A stretch of 64,000 nt of DNA from Escherichia coli (lineage in GTDB: Bacteria > Pseudomonadota > Gammaproteobacteria > Enterobacterales > Enterobacteriaceae), in NCBI RefSeq assembly GCF_003334765.1, contig NZ_QOWT01000014.1. One strand, written 5' to 3'. How positions within the stretch are numbered: the first letter of the stretch is position 1; every line of letters starts with the position of its first letter. Shown one piece after another: positions 1 through 62,747 of the stretch. The notes below the pieces were generated by a model, which was not told the origin of the DNA, made no database searches, and saw only the letters and a program-made list of their open reading frames with translations. Position numbers and translations under genes: made by a program.

Positions 1-68
1 CGTGTCAGTGGTGGCGCATTATAGGGAGTTATTCCGGCCTGACAAGAGGAAATTTAAAATAATTTTCT
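1..68 (-). promoter_or_regulatory. rrnB P1: rrnB P1 ribosomal RNA promoter (UP element, -35, -10, TSS) firing leftward out of the window
   Basis: Reverse complement of 1..70 reads TCAGAAAATTATTTTAAATTTCCTCTTGTCAGGCCGGAATAACTCCCTATAATGCGCCACCACTGACACG, matching the rrnB P1 sequence as I recall it: UP element 47..68, -35 TTGTCA 40..45, 16 bp spacer, -10 TATAAT 18..23, TSS near 9. Confidence 0.85.
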
Positions 69-90
69 GACCGCGCAACATTCAACCAAA

Positions 91-948
91 TCAGCCTAAA
101 ACTGCCAGTTTTTCGAGCGTTTCGAAGCCGTAACGCTGTAAAACGGGCAATAATTGTTCAGCTCCTGGCGTCATTGCCATACAAAAGGCAATATTCGCAT
201 CGGCAGATTTTGCATCCGGGGCTTCATGTTCTAACAACCAGGCCGTTCGGCGAGCAATCGCTGCGCCAGAATCCACCAGCCGGGTTCCCTCTGGCAGCAC
301 TTGTAACAGTTCTTCTTGTAGTAGAGGGAAATGGGTGCAACCCAATACAACGGTATCTGGCGGCTCTTTCATTCTTAACCACGGGCGTAGGATACGTTTT
401 AGTGCATCCAGAGAAACATCTTCGCCATGTAGCTTCGCTTCAGCCAACTCAACCATCTCTGCCGAGCCCAGCATTTCTATCTGGCATTCATTAGCGAAAC
501 GCGCGATCAGCTCATGAGTATAAGAACGTTTAATTGTTCCGCGGGTTGCCAGTAATCCGACAATGCCATTTGCCGTCAGACGTGCAGCAGGTTTAATCGC
601 CGGCACGACACCAACAACCGGGAAGTCGAACTTTTCGCGTAATGCAGGAAGTGAAACGGTACTGGCAGTGTTGCAAGCGACCACAGCCAGCGCAAGGGGA
701 TAACGTTCTTGCACCGCGGTGACAATTGCCACCACTCGCTCAACAATAAACGCTTCGCTTTTTTCGCCATACGGGAAAGCGACGTTATCGAAAGCATAAA
801 TGTAATGGAGATCCGGTAAGAGATGCCGGATCTCGTCATAGACCGACAACCCACCGACGCCGGAGTCAAACACCAGCACGGTGGGACGTGGTTCAGAAGG
901 TGTAGCTGCCAGACAAGGTGTATTCCCGTCCTGCAGTTTGGTAGCCAT
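91..948 (-). CDS. murI: glutamate racemase
   Basis: ORF 91..960 translation recognised as MurI ([40 protein letters not shown]...); start set to the MATKL Met, giving 285 aa. Confidence 0.93.
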
Positions 949-2737
949 AGACTGTCTCATAATCTTTGTCGAACAGGTTGGCTATTTTACCACGAACTGT
1001 CAGGTGAGAGGTGACCGGATACGCAACCGCAAGATCCCACAAGCTCACACCGCCCATTTTAACGGTTTGATAAGGATAAGATGAGTAATCCTTATCATAG
1101 CGAGTGCCTAAATACTGATAAGTAATACCCCAGTCGAAGTCATACAACTGCCAGTCGAGCTGGTATTTCACCTGCTGTTTAGCACGGCGTAACAACGGCG
1201 TGTCGGTAATCGCATTGCGCGCATCGACATAATCATAACTCACAGTATGCGTCAGTGGTCCGGTATCAAAATTGGCGGTCGCCTCGACGCCCTTAATCCG
1301 CGCTTTCCCTTCGTTGTAATATTTCAGGGTGTGATCATCATAATCGATCAAGTCACTGACATCGTTACGATATCCGGAAATACGCCAGTTCACCCCAGCG
1401 GTTAAGCCTTCAAACGCGCCTTCCCACTGTTTGCTTTTCTCCGGGTCCAGATTCGGATTTCCGTAGAAGCCATACAGTTGCCCCAGATTTGGTGCCTTAT
1501 AAGATGTCCCGTAGGAAGCAATGAAGCGATAACCTTCGATGAATTCCCAACCGGCGCTGGTTTGCCAGGTTCCATGACGACCAAACTGTGAGTTATCGTC
1601 ACTGCGTGCTGCGCCTTCAAAGGTAAAATCGCCGACTTGTTGCAGCCCGGTCAGATAGATGCCGGTATTACGTTGATCATATCCATCCTCAACATAACCT
1701 GTACCCGGCGTCGTAGTCTGTTTCTGCCAGTCGACACCCGCACCAATACTACCGTGACCAACGATGACATTGTTTGCCCACTGGACGGTGTATTGCTTCA
1801 TCTCATCGAGCGTCGCCGACGAATCATAACGACCATAATGGGGATCGTAGTTGTAATCTTTGCTATGGCTATAGCTGGTAATGAGTTGTGATTTAATCAG
1901 TTCGCCGTTATAGCGCAGCCCGGCGTCCCAACTTTGGCTATAGAGTTTACGGGTATCGAGCAACGGTGAACCGGGAGAATAATACGCGTCATAATTGGTA
2001 CGGTTATCATAGCCATAGCCGCGCACAAAGCCGCTCCAGGCATCAGTAAAGTTATGCTCCAGCGCGCCATAAAGCGTTTTACTTAAAAAACCATCGTTAT
2101 CTGTCTGCGCTTGCGTTCCGGTATTACCATAGGCAACAACATCATAACCATGAGTATGGGCATAATCGCCCAACAGCGTTACCCGTGTCTTATCCCCCAG
2201 TTGTTGCTGCGTAGAGACATCATAGTTCTGATAACTATTGCTTCCCCACCCTGCTGAAATTTCCGTTCCGGGTTCATCGCGCGTCGTGATGATATTCACC
2301 ACCCCGCCTATTGCATCGGAACCATAAACAGCGGAGCGCGGCCCACGGATATATTCAACACGCTGGACAAGCGCAATAGGGAACTGGCTAAGGTCGGCAG
2401 AACCACTCACCCCCGCCAGATTCAGGCGTACGCCATCAATTAACACCAACACATGACTGGCATTTGTACCGCGAATAAAAATAGATGAGAGCTGACCTGA
2501 ACCGCCGTTTTGGGTGATATCGACGCCCGGAAGACGGCGCAGCACATCATTGACCGAGGTCGACTGCCAGCGGTCGATATCCTGACGGGTCACAACGGTG
2601 GTTGGTGCAAGCACAGTGCTGCGCGGCTGTTCAAAACGGTTAGCAGTAACGACGAGAGTATCCGGGCTGGTATCCTGTGCCCAAGCGGAAAATGCCGTGA
2701 CGGAACACGCCGTCAGCAGCGAAGCTTTTTTAATCAT
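893..2737 (-). CDS. btuB: TonB-dependent vitamin B12 outer membrane transporter
   Basis: ORF translation recognised as BtuB; signal peptide [20 protein letters not shown], TonB box DTLVVTA, C-terminal Phe; start at MIKK gives 614 aa. The 3' end overlaps the murI start. Confidence 0.95.
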
Positions 2738-2977
2738 TGTAAAGCATCCACAATAGAAGAAGGATGCCGCAGGTTTCATCAATATTACGCGATGATGAGA
2801 ACCAGATGCGACGTTGGCCGGCAGGTCTTCGGGCTTGGAGGGGTATCTAAGATACTAAGAGATGATGACTTCCCACCGAATGGCAGTGTCCGCATAACGC
2901 AATCATCGCACCTTTCCTTACCGCTGCGCGTCAGCTCCAGATTCGCACTGGATTCCCTATTAACTCACAGGACCGGC
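2738..2977 (-). promoter_or_regulatory. cobalamin (adenosylcobalamin) riboswitch in the btuB 5' leader
   Basis: Minus-strand sequence from 2977 reads GCCGGTCCTGTGAGTTAATAGGGAATCCAGTGCGAATCTGGAGCTGACGCGCAGCGGTAAGGAAAGGTGCG... through to the btuB ATG, matching the ~240 nt btuB leader as I recall it. Confidence 0.85.
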
Positions 2978-3105
2978 AAGTGGATGCTACAGGTTGTAAC
3001 AAGTTACTGTCCAGACGTAGCTCACAAATAGGAATTCATCAAGATCTGGACATCTGATGAGCAATCCCTACAATCGCCGCGTACTTTAATTTTTCAGGAT
3101 ACATC

Positions 3106-6986: not shown

Positions 6987-7886
6987 AACTTTATCGAAAT
7001 GGCCATCCATTCTTGCGCGGATGGCCTCTGCCAGCTGCTCATAGCGGCTGCGCAGCGGTGAGCCAGGACGATAAACCAGGCCAATAGTGCGGCGTGGTTC
7101 CGGCTTAATGCACGGCAGATAAACAACCCCATCGCGTTTGCGCTCCGGCGGCACAGCCAGCGCTGGCAGTAAAGTGATCCCGCTACCTGCCGCCACCATG
7201 TTGCGCAGAGTTTCCAGGCTGGTCGCGCGGAAGTGTGTATCTTCATCCGCCCCGGCTTCAAAACAGAAACCCATTGCCTGATCGCGCAAACAGTGACCAT
7301 CTTCCAGCATCAGCAGTTTTTCCCCTGCCAGATCGGCCATCGGTACGCATTCGCGGTTCGCCCACGGGTGATCTTCATAGATAGCCAGCAACATTGGCTC
7401 ATCAAACAACGGCACTTCAATGAATGCTTCGCTCTCTTTCACCAGCGCGAGGATCACGCAATCGAGTTTGCCGCTGTCCAGTTGCGCCAGTAACTGGTGG
7501 GTCTGTGCTTCATGCAGATACATTTCCAGCTTTGGAAAGGTCTGGTGCAGCATAGGGATAATATGCGGTAGCAGGTACGGTCCAACTGTGGGAATCAAAC
7601 CAATGTGCAGCGGTCCGGACATCGTCTCGCCCTGCTGGCTTGCCATCTCTTTAAGGACTTTCACCTCACGCAGCACGGTACGCGCCTGATCCACCAGCAG
7701 CATTCCCGCCTGGGTGAACAACACTTTACGGCTGGTCCGCTCCAGCAACATCACGCCCAGCTCATCTTCCAGCTTACGAATTTGCCCGCTAAGCGTCGGC
7801 TGGCTAACGTGGCAGGAATCTGCCGCACGCCGAAAATGGCGGTGTTCAGCCAATGCCACCAGGTACTCAAGATCACGAATATTCAT
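6969..7886 (-). CDS. oxyR: LysR-family hydrogen peroxide-responsive regulator
   Basis: Recognised OxyR sequence ([40 protein letters not shown]...); start at MNIRD gives 305 aa. The 3' end overlaps the sthA 3' end by 18 bp. Confidence 0.95.
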
Positions 7887-7980
7887 TATCCATCCTCCAT
7901 CGCCACGATAGTTCATGGCGATAGGTAGAATAGCAATGAACGATTATCCCTATCAAGCATTCTGACTGATAATTGCTCAC
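7887..7980. promoter_or_regulatory. divergent oxyR / oxyS promoter region containing the OxyR operator
   Basis: Position between the oxyR start and the oxyS 5' end; AT-rich with ATAG-containing repeats. Exact OxyR contacts not resolved by eye. Confidence 0.6.
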
Positions 7981-7981
7981 A

Positions 7982-8098
7982 GAAACGGAGCGGCACCTCT
8001 TTTAACCCTTGAAGTCACTGCCCGTTTCGAGAGTTTCTCAACTCGAATAACTAAAGCCAACGTGAACTTTTGCGGATCTCCAGGATCCGCTTTTTTTT
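7982..8098 (+). ncRNA. oxyS: OxyS small regulatory RNA with intrinsic terminator
   Basis: Sequence GAAACGGAGCGGCACCTCTTTTAACCCTTGAAGTCACTGCCCGTTTCGAGAGTTTCTCAACTCGAATAACTAAAGCCAACGTGAACTTTTGCGGATCTCCAGGATCCGC followed by T8 matches OxyS as I recall it; divergent from oxyR. Confidence 0.9.
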
Positions 8099-8152
8099 GC
8101 CATAAAAAAGCCCGGCGATAAGCCAGGCTCAAATTTATACATATAAATGTTC

Positions 8153-9526
8153 TTACCCTAACCGAGCCTGCGCAAAAGCAATCGCCTGCGCCACCTGCTG
8201 CGGTGAGACGCCGCCTTTTGCCGCACGCTTGTCGAGGCACGATTGCAGCGACAGAATCGGATAGACATCTTCGTCAATCACCTGACTGAATTTCTGCAAC
8301 TCACTGAGCGGCAGATCTTCCAGCGGTTTGCCCTGACGAATGGCTTCCACCACCGCTTCACCAACAATATGGTGCGCCTCGCGGAACGGTACGCCTTTCG
8401 CCACCAGATAATCCGCCAGTTCGGTGGCGTTGGCGTAACCCTGCTGAGCCGCTTCCTGGCAACGTGGACGTTTCACCTGAATGCCGTCCAGCACCAGCGC
8501 CGCCATATGCAGGCAGTCCAGCCAGGTATCGAGCGCGTCGAACAGACCTTCTTTGTCTTCCTGCATATCTTTGTTGTAAGCCAGCGGCAAACCTTTCAGC
8601 GTCATCATCATGCCGGTTAACGCCCCCTGCACCCGGCCGCATTTACCGCGAATCAGCTCCAGCGCATCCGGGTTTTTCTTCTGCGGCATTAATGATGAAC
8701 CGGAAGTCACGCGGTCAGAAAGCTCCACAAACCCCGCTTCGCCGGTGTTAAAGAAAATCAGATCTTCAGCAAAACGCGACAGATGCACCATGCCGATAGC
8801 GGCAGCAGAAAGCAGTTCCAACACATGGTCACGGTCAGAAACGCTGTCGAGACTGTTACGGGTCGCCGAAGCAAAGCCCAGCCAGCCTGCTAACTGTTCA
8901 CGGTCGATTTCATAGGCCGTTCCCGCCAGCGCGCCACAGCCTAGCGGGCTGACATCCAGACGCTTAAGCGCATCCTGCAAACGGCTTTCATCACGCGCCA
9001 GCATCTCAACATAGGCCAGGCACCAGTGCGCGAACGTCACCGGCTGGGCGCGTTGCAGGTGAGTGTAACCTGGCATTACCGCGTCCTGATTGTTTTGTGC
9101 GGTTTCCACCAGCGCCGATTGCAGCTGCCGGTTAGCCGTCAGTAACTCGCTAACGGTATCTTTGCACCACAGTTTCAGGTCAGTCGCTACCTGATCATTA
9201 CGGCTACGCCCGGTATGCAGCTTTTTGCCTAACTGGCCCACTTTGTCGATCAGTTTGCCTTCCACCCAGCTATGGATATCTTCGGCGTCGCTTTCAAGGA
9301 TTTGTTGTGGCCTGGCGCGAACATCTTCCAGCAACACGTTCAGCGCCTCTTCCAGTTGCGCCTGCTCTTCTGCGGTTAACACGCCTACCGTGACCAGGGC
9401 TTTGGACCAGGCCACAGAGCCAACAATATCCTGCTCCGCCAGACGGTAATCAAAGCGCAGTGAGTCGTTGAATTGTTTGAACCGTTGATCTGCTGCCTGG
9501 GTAAAACGCCCGCCCCAAAGTGCCAT
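8153..9526 (-). CDS. argH: argininosuccinate lyase
   Basis: 457 aa ORF recognised as ArgH ([34 protein letters not shown]...). Confidence 0.95.
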
Positions 9527-12680: not shown

Positions 12681-12907
12681 AACGTAGGCCGGATAAGGCG
12701 CTCGCGCCGCATCCGGCGCTGTTGCCAAACTCCAGTGCCGCAATAATGTCGGATGCGATGCTTGCGCATCTTATCCGACCTACAGTGACTCAAACGATGC
12801 CCAACCGTAGGCCGGATAAGGCGCTCGCGCCGCATCCGGCACTGTTGCCAAACTCCAGTGCCGCAATAATGTCGGATGCGATACTTGCGCATCTTATCCG
12901 ACCTACA
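12681..12907. repeat. tandem duplication (about 123 bp unit, 2 copies) of a BIME made of two inverted REP palindromes
   Basis: Unit GTAGGCCGGATAAGGCGCTCGCGCCGCATCCGGC...GCCGCAATAATGTCGGATGCGATGCTTGCGCATCTTATCCGACCTACA occurs twice (from about 12684 and 12807), with only single-base differences visible. Confidence 0.9.
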
Positions 12908-13154: not shown

Positions 13155-15806
13155 ATGAACGAACAATATTCCGCATTGCGTAGTAATGTCAGTATGCTCG
13201 GCAAAGTGCTGGGAGAAACCATCAAGGATGCGTTGGGAGAACACATTCTTGAACGCGTAGAAACTATCCGTAAGTTGTCGAAATCTTCACGCGCTGGCAA
13301 TGATGCTAACCGCCAGGAGTTGCTCACCACCTTACAAAATTTGTCGAACGACGAGCTGCTGCCCGTTGCGCGTGCGTTTAGTCAGTTCCTGAACCTGGCC
13401 AACACCGCCGAGCAATACCACAGCATTTCGCCGAAAGGCGAAGCTGCCAGCAACCCGGAAGTGATCGCCCGCACCCTGCGTAAACTGAAAAACCAGCCGG
13501 AACTGAGCGAAGACACCATCAAAAAAGCAGTGGAATCGCTGTCGCTGGAACTGGTCCTCACGGCTCACCCAACCGAAATTACCCGTCGTACACTGATCCA
13601 CAAAATGGTGGAAGTGAACGCCTGTTTAAAACAGCTCGATAACAAAGATATCGCTGACTACGAACACAACCAGCTGATGCGTCGCCTGCGCCAGTTGATC
13701 GCCCAGTCATGGCATACCGATGAAATCCGTAAGCTGCGTCCAAGCCCGGTAGATGAAGCCAAATGGGGCTTTGCCGTAGTGGAAAACAGCCTGTGGCAAG
13801 GCGTACCAAATTACCTGCGCGAACTGAACGAACAACTGGAAGAGAACCTCGGCTACAAACTGCCCGTCGAATTTGTTCCGGTCCGTTTTACTTCGTGGAT
13901 GGGCGGCGACCGCGACGGCAACCCGAACGTCACTGCCGATATCACCCGCCACGTCCTGCTACTCAGCCGCTGGAAAGCCACCGATTTGTTCCTGAAAGAT
14001 ATTCAGGTGCTGGTTTCTGAACTGTCGATGGTTGAAGCGACCCCTGAACTGCTGGCGCTGGTTGGCGAAGAAGGTGCCGCAGAACCGTATCGCTATCTGA
14101 TGAAAAACCTGCGTTCTCGCCTGATGGCGACACAGGCATGGCTGGAAGCGCGCCTGAAAGGCGAAGAACTGCCAAAACCAGAAGGCCTGCTGACACAAAA
14201 CGAAGAACTGTGGGAACCGCTCTACGCTTGCTACCAGTCACTTCAGGCGTGTGGCATGGGTATTATCGCCAACGGCGATCTGCTCGACACCCTGCGCCGC
14301 GTGAAATGTTTCGGCGTACCGCTGGTCCGTATTGATATCCGTCAGGAGAGCACGCGTCATACCGAAGCGCTGGGCGAGCTGACCCGCTACCTCGGTATCG
14401 GCGACTACGAAAGCTGGTCAGAGGCCGACAAACAAGCGTTCCTGATCCGCGAACTGAACTCCAAACGTCCGCTTCTGCCGCGCAACTGGCAACCAAGCGC
14501 CGAAACGCGCGAAGTGCTCGATACCTGCCAGGTGATTGCCGAAGCACCGCAAGGCTCCATTGCCGCCTACGTGATCTCGATGGCGAAAACGCCGTCCGAC
14601 GTACTGGCTGTCCACCTGCTGCTGAAAGAAGCGGGTATCGGGTTTGCGATGCCGGTTGCTCCGCTGTTTGAAACCCTCGATGATCTGAACAACGCCAACG
14701 ATGTCATGACCCAGCTGCTCAATATTGACTGGTATCGTGGCCTGATTCAGGGCAAACAGATGGTGATGATTGGCTATTCCGACTCAGCAAAAGATGCGGG
14801 AGTGATGGCAGCTTCCTGGGCGCAATATCAGGCACAGGATGCATTAATCAAAACCTGCGAAAAAGCGGGTATTGAGCTGACGTTGTTCCACGGTCGCGGC
14901 GGTTCCATTGGTCGCGGCGGCGCACCTGCTCATGCGGCGCTGCTGTCACAACCGCCAGGAAGCCTGAAAGGCGGCCTGCGCGTAACCGAACAGGGCGAGA
15001 TGATCCGCTTTAAATATGGTCTGCCAGAAATCACCGTCAGCAGCCTGTCGCTTTATACCGGGGCGATTCTGGAAGCCAACCTGCTGCCACCGCCGGAGCC
15101 GAAAGAGAGCTGGCGTCGCATTATGGATGAACTGTCAGTCATCTCCTGCGATGTCTACCGCGGCTACGTACGTGAAAACAAAGATTTTGTGCCTTACTTC
15201 CGCTCCGCTACGCCGGAACAAGAACTGGGCAAACTGCCGTTGGGTTCACGTCCGGCGAAACGTCGCCCAACCGGCGGCGTCGAGTCACTACGCGCCATTC
15301 CGTGGATCTTCGCCTGGACGCAAAACCGTCTGATGCTCCCCGCCTGGCTGGGTGCAGGTACGGCGCTGCAAAAAGTGGTCGAAGACGGCAAACAGAGCGA
15401 GCTGGAGGCTATGTGCCGCGATTGGCCATTCTTCTCGACGCGTCTCGGCATGCTGGAGATGGTCTTCGCCAAAGCAGACCTGTGGCTGGCGGAATACTAT
15501 GACCAACGCCTGGTAGACAAAGCACTGTGGCCGTTAGGTAAAGAGTTACGCAACCTGCAAGAAGAAGACATCAAAGTGGTGCTGGCGATTGCCAACGATT
15601 CCCATCTGATGGCCGATCTGCCGTGGATTGCAGAGTCTATTCAGCTACGGAATATTTACACCGACCCGCTGAACGTATTGCAGGCCGAGTTGCTGCACCG
15701 CTCCCGCCAGGCAGAAAAAGAAGGCCAGGAACCGGATCCTCGCGTCGAACAAGCGTTAATGGTCACTATTGCCGGGATTGCGGCAGGTATGCGTAATACC
15801 GGCTAA
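13155..15806 (+). CDS. ppc: phosphoenolpyruvate carboxylase
   Basis: 883 aa ORF recognised as Ppc; conserved VLTAHPTE and C-terminal ...MRNTG. Confidence 0.97.
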
Positions 15807-57583: not shown

Positions 57584-57683
57584 TGCCGGATGCGGCGCGA
57601 ACGCCTTATCCGGCCTACAAAAGTTTGCAAATTCAATAAATTGCAGAATTCATGTAGGCCTGATAAGCGAAGCGCATCAGGCA
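57584..57683. repeat. RIP-type BIME (third copy in window, opposite orientation)
   Basis: TGCCGGATGCGGCGCGAACGCCTTATCCGGCCTACAA - AAGTTTGCAAATTCAATAAATTGCAGAATTCATG - TAGGCCTGATAAGCGAAGCGCATCAGGCA. Confidence 0.85.
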
Positions 57684-62662: not shown

Positions 62663-62747
62663 GCAGGCAGGATAAGGCGTTTACGCCGCATCCGGCATTT
62701 GAGCAGGATGCCTGATGCGACGCTGATAGCGTCTTATCAGGCCTACA
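62663..62747. repeat. REP pair (BIME) downstream of cpxA
   Basis: GCAGGCAGGATAAGGCGTTTACGCCGCATCCGGCA and inverted GCCTGATGCGACGCTGATAGCGTCTTATCAGGCCTACA. Confidence 0.85.

Follow-up and report, generated by a model that had tools for sequence, protein, structure and literature searches.

The start of a 64-kb Escherichia coli window matches the rrnB P1 promoter immediately downstream of murI

The window, by which we mean the whole stretch of E. coli DNA analysed here (64,000 nucleotides), opens in a short non-coding gap next to murI, which encodes glutamate racemase. The only long open reading frame that reaches the window start is 289 amino acids long (91..960, minus strand) and is murI; its annotated start is at 948, so the gene is placed at 91..948 on the minus strand, based on the reading frame and on the annotation in K-12 and seven other genomes. 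At its other end, murI overlaps the end of btuB (open reading frame 893..2782) by 56 nt in a different frame (893..948), and K-12 is annotated likewise. The murI stop codon, TGA, lies at 93..91. All six frames of positions 1..93 contain stop codons and no coding sequence is annotated between murI and rrsB, in agreement with the initial annotation, in which a promoter had been given as the reason why no open reading frame covers positions 1..90.

Reading the window start on the minus strand (...TCAGAAAATTATTTTAAATTTCCTCTTGTCAGGCCGGAATAACTCCCTATAATGCGCCACCACTGACACG) reveals the elements of a sigma-70 promoter, all of which are given here in window coordinates on the minus strand. A consensus scan identified a -10 hexamer, TATAAT, at 18..23 and a -35 hexamer, TTGTCA, at 40..45, with a suboptimal 16-bp spacer between them (24..39). 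The two hexamers with this spacer score 11 of 12 against the consensus and are the best of the three promoter-like sites that the scan found in window positions 1..1200, and a search of the 64-kb window for the 33-nt core gives a single hit, even when three mismatches are allowed. Directly downstream of the -10 hexamer lies a G+C-rich discriminator (GCGCCACC, 10..17, -8..-1), and in K-12 each of the seven rrn P1 promoters has GCGCC after this hexamer. The start of transcription, for which we relied on the established rrnB P1 numbering, is taken to be the A at position 9, which is 9 nt downstream of the -10 hexamer, so that window position 9 is +1 and window position 1 is +9. The initially transcribed region (CUGACACG, +9..+2) occupies 1..8 and matches K-12 exactly, and the window stops at +9, with the remaining leader, the P2 promoter and the 16S rRNA gene beyond its edge. 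Upstream of the -35 hexamer, an A+T-rich UP element (CAGAAAATTATTTTAAATTTC, -40..-60) at 49..69 has the same letters as in rrnB, rrnA and rrnC P1 of K-12; the limits of -60 to -40 are those published (bioRxiv 10.1101/2020.02.05.936344). The first 70 nt had been described as the reverse complement of the rrnB P1 core and UP element, which is accurate to within one base.

Fis sites were scored with a crude and uncalibrated rule of our own (G1, C15, Y4, R12 and an A/T centre), which was taken from the commonly cited degenerate consensus. By this rule, the three top-scoring G-N13-C cores within 400 nt upstream, taken here as putative Fis cores, are centred exactly at -71, -102 and -143, and these are the published Fis centres of rrnB P1 (PMC2885671). 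The placement of +1 at window position 9 is cross-checked by this result, because the published centres then land exactly on the three best cores. The core of site I (GGTTGAATGTTGCGC, 73..87, minus strand, centre -71) is wholly inside the gap between murI and the UP element, while the cores of site II (GCTCGAAAAACTGGC, 104..118, minus strand, centre -102) and site III (GAACAATTATTGCCC, 145..159, minus strand, centre -143) lie over the murI codons L-E-K-L-A and E-Q-L-L-P, respectively, and are embedded in the final 22 codons of the gene; all three assignments rest on the scan together with the published centres (PMC2885671). In promoter numbering, the murI stop codon is at -84..-82, and a gap of 21 bp (window 70..90) separates it from the UP element, whose upstream edge is at -60; this is close to the roughly 20 bp suggested initially. 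The accompanying expectation that the Fis sites overlap the coding end of murI was correct for sites II and III but not for site I (87..73). The overlap of the two distal Fis sites with murI has already been stated in the literature. A similar arrangement has been described for the tyrT promoter, where one of three Fis sites is inside the co-directional purU reading frame (bioRxiv 10.1101/2024.03.27.586983). Compared by published description only, tyrT is likewise a stable-RNA promoter with an upstream activating sequence that overlaps a coding 3′ end; in contrast, it is a separate locus and drives a tRNA operon.

To the left of the window, the K-12 genome contains the rRNA operon. The reverse complement of window positions 1..90 is present as an exact 90-mer in NC_000913.3 (4166286..4166375), directly after the murI stop and 283 nt short of rrsB, which puts the start of rrsB, the 16S gene, 284 nt to the left of window position 1 (position 7500 in our K-12 record, L001). 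This record shows the arrangement of the rrnB operon (btuB, murI, 16S, tRNA-Glu, 23S, 5S and murB), and Rfam reports a full-length bacterial SSU rRNA at 7784..9325 with 1577 bits as well as a tRNA. The P2 promoter (TTGACT, 16-nt spacer, TATTAT) is found at 7575..7602 of the same record, which is 75-102 nt left of window position 1. In seven of seven divergent E. coli genomes (98.2-99.6% identity), murI is followed by the 16S gene after 370-377 nt, and P2, the leader and then 16S-tRNA-Glu-23S-5S are downstream of P1 in every genome examined. Thus, the initial annotation, which had placed an rRNA operon immediately to the left of the window and expected its 16S gene no farther than about 400 bp away, is borne out in K-12 and in the seven divergent E. 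coli genomes. The operon is inferred here from all related genomes, the window itself ending before the 16S gene.

The window start was aligned with the upstream region of each of the seven 16S genes in K-12. Window positions 1..77 are 100% identical in the P1 promoters of rrnA, rrnB and rrnC, and positions 1..46 are also identical in rrnG P1, while rrnH, rrnD and rrnE differ considerably and share 40-46 of 70 positions with the window start. A second perfect 77-nt match elsewhere in one genome (H45) agrees with such sharing among rrn copies. Nothing within positions 1..70 is unique to rrnB; because 1..77 is common to three operons, 1..70 indicates only a P1 of the rrnA/B/C type, and only positions 78..90 and the context discriminate. 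This identity is also what speaks for an origin from another operon, namely rrnA or rrnC, but such an origin is very improbable. Over the 13 positions of 78..90 there are 6 mismatches to rrnC and 9 to rrnA, the upstream neighbour here is murI while hemG precedes rrnA and yieP precedes rrnC in K-12, and the window is colinear over its whole 64 kb with the rrnB flank that carries btuB and murI. The rrnA and rrnC promoters are 100% identical to the present one from +9 to -68, a stretch that takes in core, UP element and the half of Fis site I nearest the promoter; upstream of -68 they diverge, and they are without Fis-type cores at -102 and -143. An origin from rrnA or rrnC was rejected on the basis of 78..90, the murI context and the 64-kb colinearity with K-12.

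The assignment to rrnB is made because of positions 78..90, the adjoining murI and the colinearity of the whole 64-kb window with NC_000913.3 (4102253..4166375). The remaining context is also that of rrnB: murI is upstream, tRNA-Glu is in the 16S-23S spacer and murB follows the 5S gene in K-12, and NC_000913.3 names the 16S gene rrsB. Alignment of positions 1..90 with the rrn P1 promoters, which had been proposed as a check, gave an exact match of 90 of 90 to K-12 rrnB and of 1..77 to rrnA and rrnC. The earlier call of rrnB from the first 70 nt was therefore right about the type of promoter, but the operon cannot be read from those letters, which are identical in rrnA and rrnC; similarly, the placement of the window on the chromosome holds through murI and the colinearity but not through the 70 nt alone. 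For sequence scans, the lesson is that the flanking gene must decide the identity of the rrn operon, since 1..77 is common to three operons.

Another explanation is that the rRNA operon is missing after the promoter in the source genome, for instance through a rearrangement or a deletion, or because the assembly was joined at this edge. Direct reading ends with the window at +9, and the window is identical to no genome in the collection. However, the 16S gene is found 370-377 nt past murI in all nine related genomes examined, and the reverse complement of window positions 1..1000, which includes murI, the end of btuB and the promoter, has a match in 5426 of 5426 complete E. coli genomes, each with the junction of murI and the promoter; loss of the operon is thus highly unlikely. 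That the site is a chance sigma-70-like sequence without function can be dismissed: although in shuffled sequences the consensus scan gives a promoter-like site roughly every 1200 nt, the present site matches an experimentally characterised promoter at 90 of 90 positions, none of 100 shuffles contains its 33-nt core, E. coli strains show hardly any variation in the region, and conservation of the core extends to Dickeya.

Hence, the sequence features of an E. coli-type rrn P1 promoter are present, namely the hexamers and spacer, the discriminator, the UP element, the Fis-type cores and, in related genomes, the operon downstream. Taken together, these results identify window positions 1..69 (minus strand), with very little doubt, as rrnB P1 with its core and UP element complete and with the window edge at +9. 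This is the main sigma-70 promoter of the rrnB rRNA operon in E. coli and is regulated by growth rate. The K-12 rrnB P1 promoter (UP element and Fis sites I-III, upstream of rrsB-gltT-rrlB-rrfB) is identical over 1..90 and beyond, with the same murI flank and the same element positions. The feature is a textbook promoter, among the most thoroughly studied in bacteria, and it has already been fully described. The value of finding it is that of a landmark only, which anchors the window at 4166375 of NC_000913.3 and directs it leftward on the K-12 map; it raises no new question.

Based on what is known of rrnB P1, the C-terminal domains of the RNA polymerase alpha subunits would bind the UP element and raise promoter activity, and Fis dimers at -71, -102 and -143 would add activation. 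Fis site I would give the largest contribution. The short spacer and the G+C-rich discriminator would lead to a short-lived open complex, which in turn may make the promoter sensitive to the concentration of the initiating NTP, to ppGpp/DksA and to supercoiling, and H-NS would act as a repressor of P1. In published work, the UP element stimulates the promoter more than 30-fold (bioRxiv 10.1101/2020.02.05.936344), P1 and P2 are regulated by Fis, H-NS, the initiating NTP and ppGpp (PMC5179076), and the growth-rate dependence is set by the initiating NTP, ppGpp and supercoiling.

The gene upstream may also contribute transcripts to this region. From the murI stop to P1, sequence scans found neither a terminator-like site nor a stable structure, and the RNA fold of window positions 140..1 was no more stable than that of shuffled sequences (z = +1.2). 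Since murI is co-directional with rrnB and no terminator separates the two, murI transcripts are predicted to run into P1.

We next consider variation at the locus in an alignment of nine E. coli sequences (the window, K-12 and seven divergent strains). The only variable site in positions 1..93 is at -59 and comes from an O157:H7 strain, and the three Fis cores contain none, while there are 12 variable sites in the 167 nt of murI at 94..260. The absence of variable sites from the 30 coding nt of Fis sites II and III is suggestive only and not significant at the local rate (P ~0.11). The leader between P1 and the 16S gene (7501..7783 in the K-12 record, and the same region in records L009-L015) is by far the most variable part, with 51 variable columns compared to one in the P1 region. 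Its changes are grouped in blocks, a pattern that resembles exchange between rrn operons rather than point mutation, as judged from the aligned sequences.

Outside E. coli, species-representative genomes were scanned for the exact 33-nt P1 core, which yielded eight loci. In four of the eight, murI immediately precedes the promoter; the sample is small, and it is biased because an exact core match was required, so that the fraction says nothing on how widespread the adjacency is or where it is missing. The four murI-linked loci are those of Escherichia sp. MOD1-EC7003, E. coli SCPM-O-B-8794, Intestinirhabdus alba and Dickeya oryzae, and the MurI proteins of the last two are 88% and 71% identical, respectively. 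Of the seven K-12 P1 promoters, six have a Fis-type core exactly at -71, as do Intestinirhabdus (GCATAAATATTATGC) and three of the four Dickeya P1 promoters. Escherichia and Intestinirhabdus retain the -102 core, which Dickeya lacks, and the -143 core is retained in Escherichia only. In Dickeya oryzae ZYY5 (L021, ~14223..14316), the murI stop codon (-75..-73) is inside the -71 Fis-type core (GAGTGAATATTGAGC), so that the promoter-proximal activator site overlaps the coding end there. The core was also detected in a Clostridia assembly, that of Terrisporobacter mayombei DSM 6539, where the low-coverage contig NODE_136 (L023, 504 nt, coverage 0.66) is identical to the E. coli murI 3′ end and rrnB P1; this contig is almost certainly an E. 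coli contamination of the assembly.

It is conceivable, but unlikely, that the ancient juxtaposition of murI and rrn P1 in Escherichia, Intestinirhabdus and Dickeya is functionally maintained and not merely tolerated. The data behind this reading are the conserved adjacency, the position of the -71 core and the invariance of the Fis cores in E. coli, the last of which is not significant (P ~0.1). If the adjacency were maintained, the role of unterminated murI transcription into P1 and of the Fis array would be to insulate or tune the activity of the rRNA promoter, and the last murI codons would be under a dual constraint as Fis sites, with the stop codon itself within the -71 site in Dickeya.

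Compared with MG1655, the first difference in the window is a SNP in murI at position 534 (codon 139), which changes MurI by V139I. About 11 SNPs relative to MG1655 were found over the 64 kb (534, 3444, 4005, 12806, 14435, 21086, 21104, 26050, 34004, 44976 and 54097). Over window positions 1..1000, the best match among the 5426 complete E. coli genomes is 99.9%, and none is identical. These comparisons indicate that the source strain is a close relative of K-12 and not MG1655. At 12683..12907, in the ppc-argE intergenic region, a 123-nt tandem repeat is present in 1.8 copies with 98% matches and is rich in REP-like GCCGGATAAGGCGC motifs; the one extra 123-nt unit at this position is the sole length difference from MG1655 in the 64 kb.

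Rfam matches at the gathering score were also obtained elsewhere in the window. A cobalamin riboswitch lies ahead of btuB (2803..2992, minus strand), and OxyS is at 7982..8091 (plus strand). Further matches are the leader of L31 (rpmE) at 39247..39299 (minus strand), the ClpQY (hslVU) promoter element at 43911..43968 (plus strand), naRNA4 at 62666..62743 (plus strand) and two copies of ES036 at 38226..38267 (minus strand) and 57620..57661 (plus strand). All of these matches are located where K-12 would have them.
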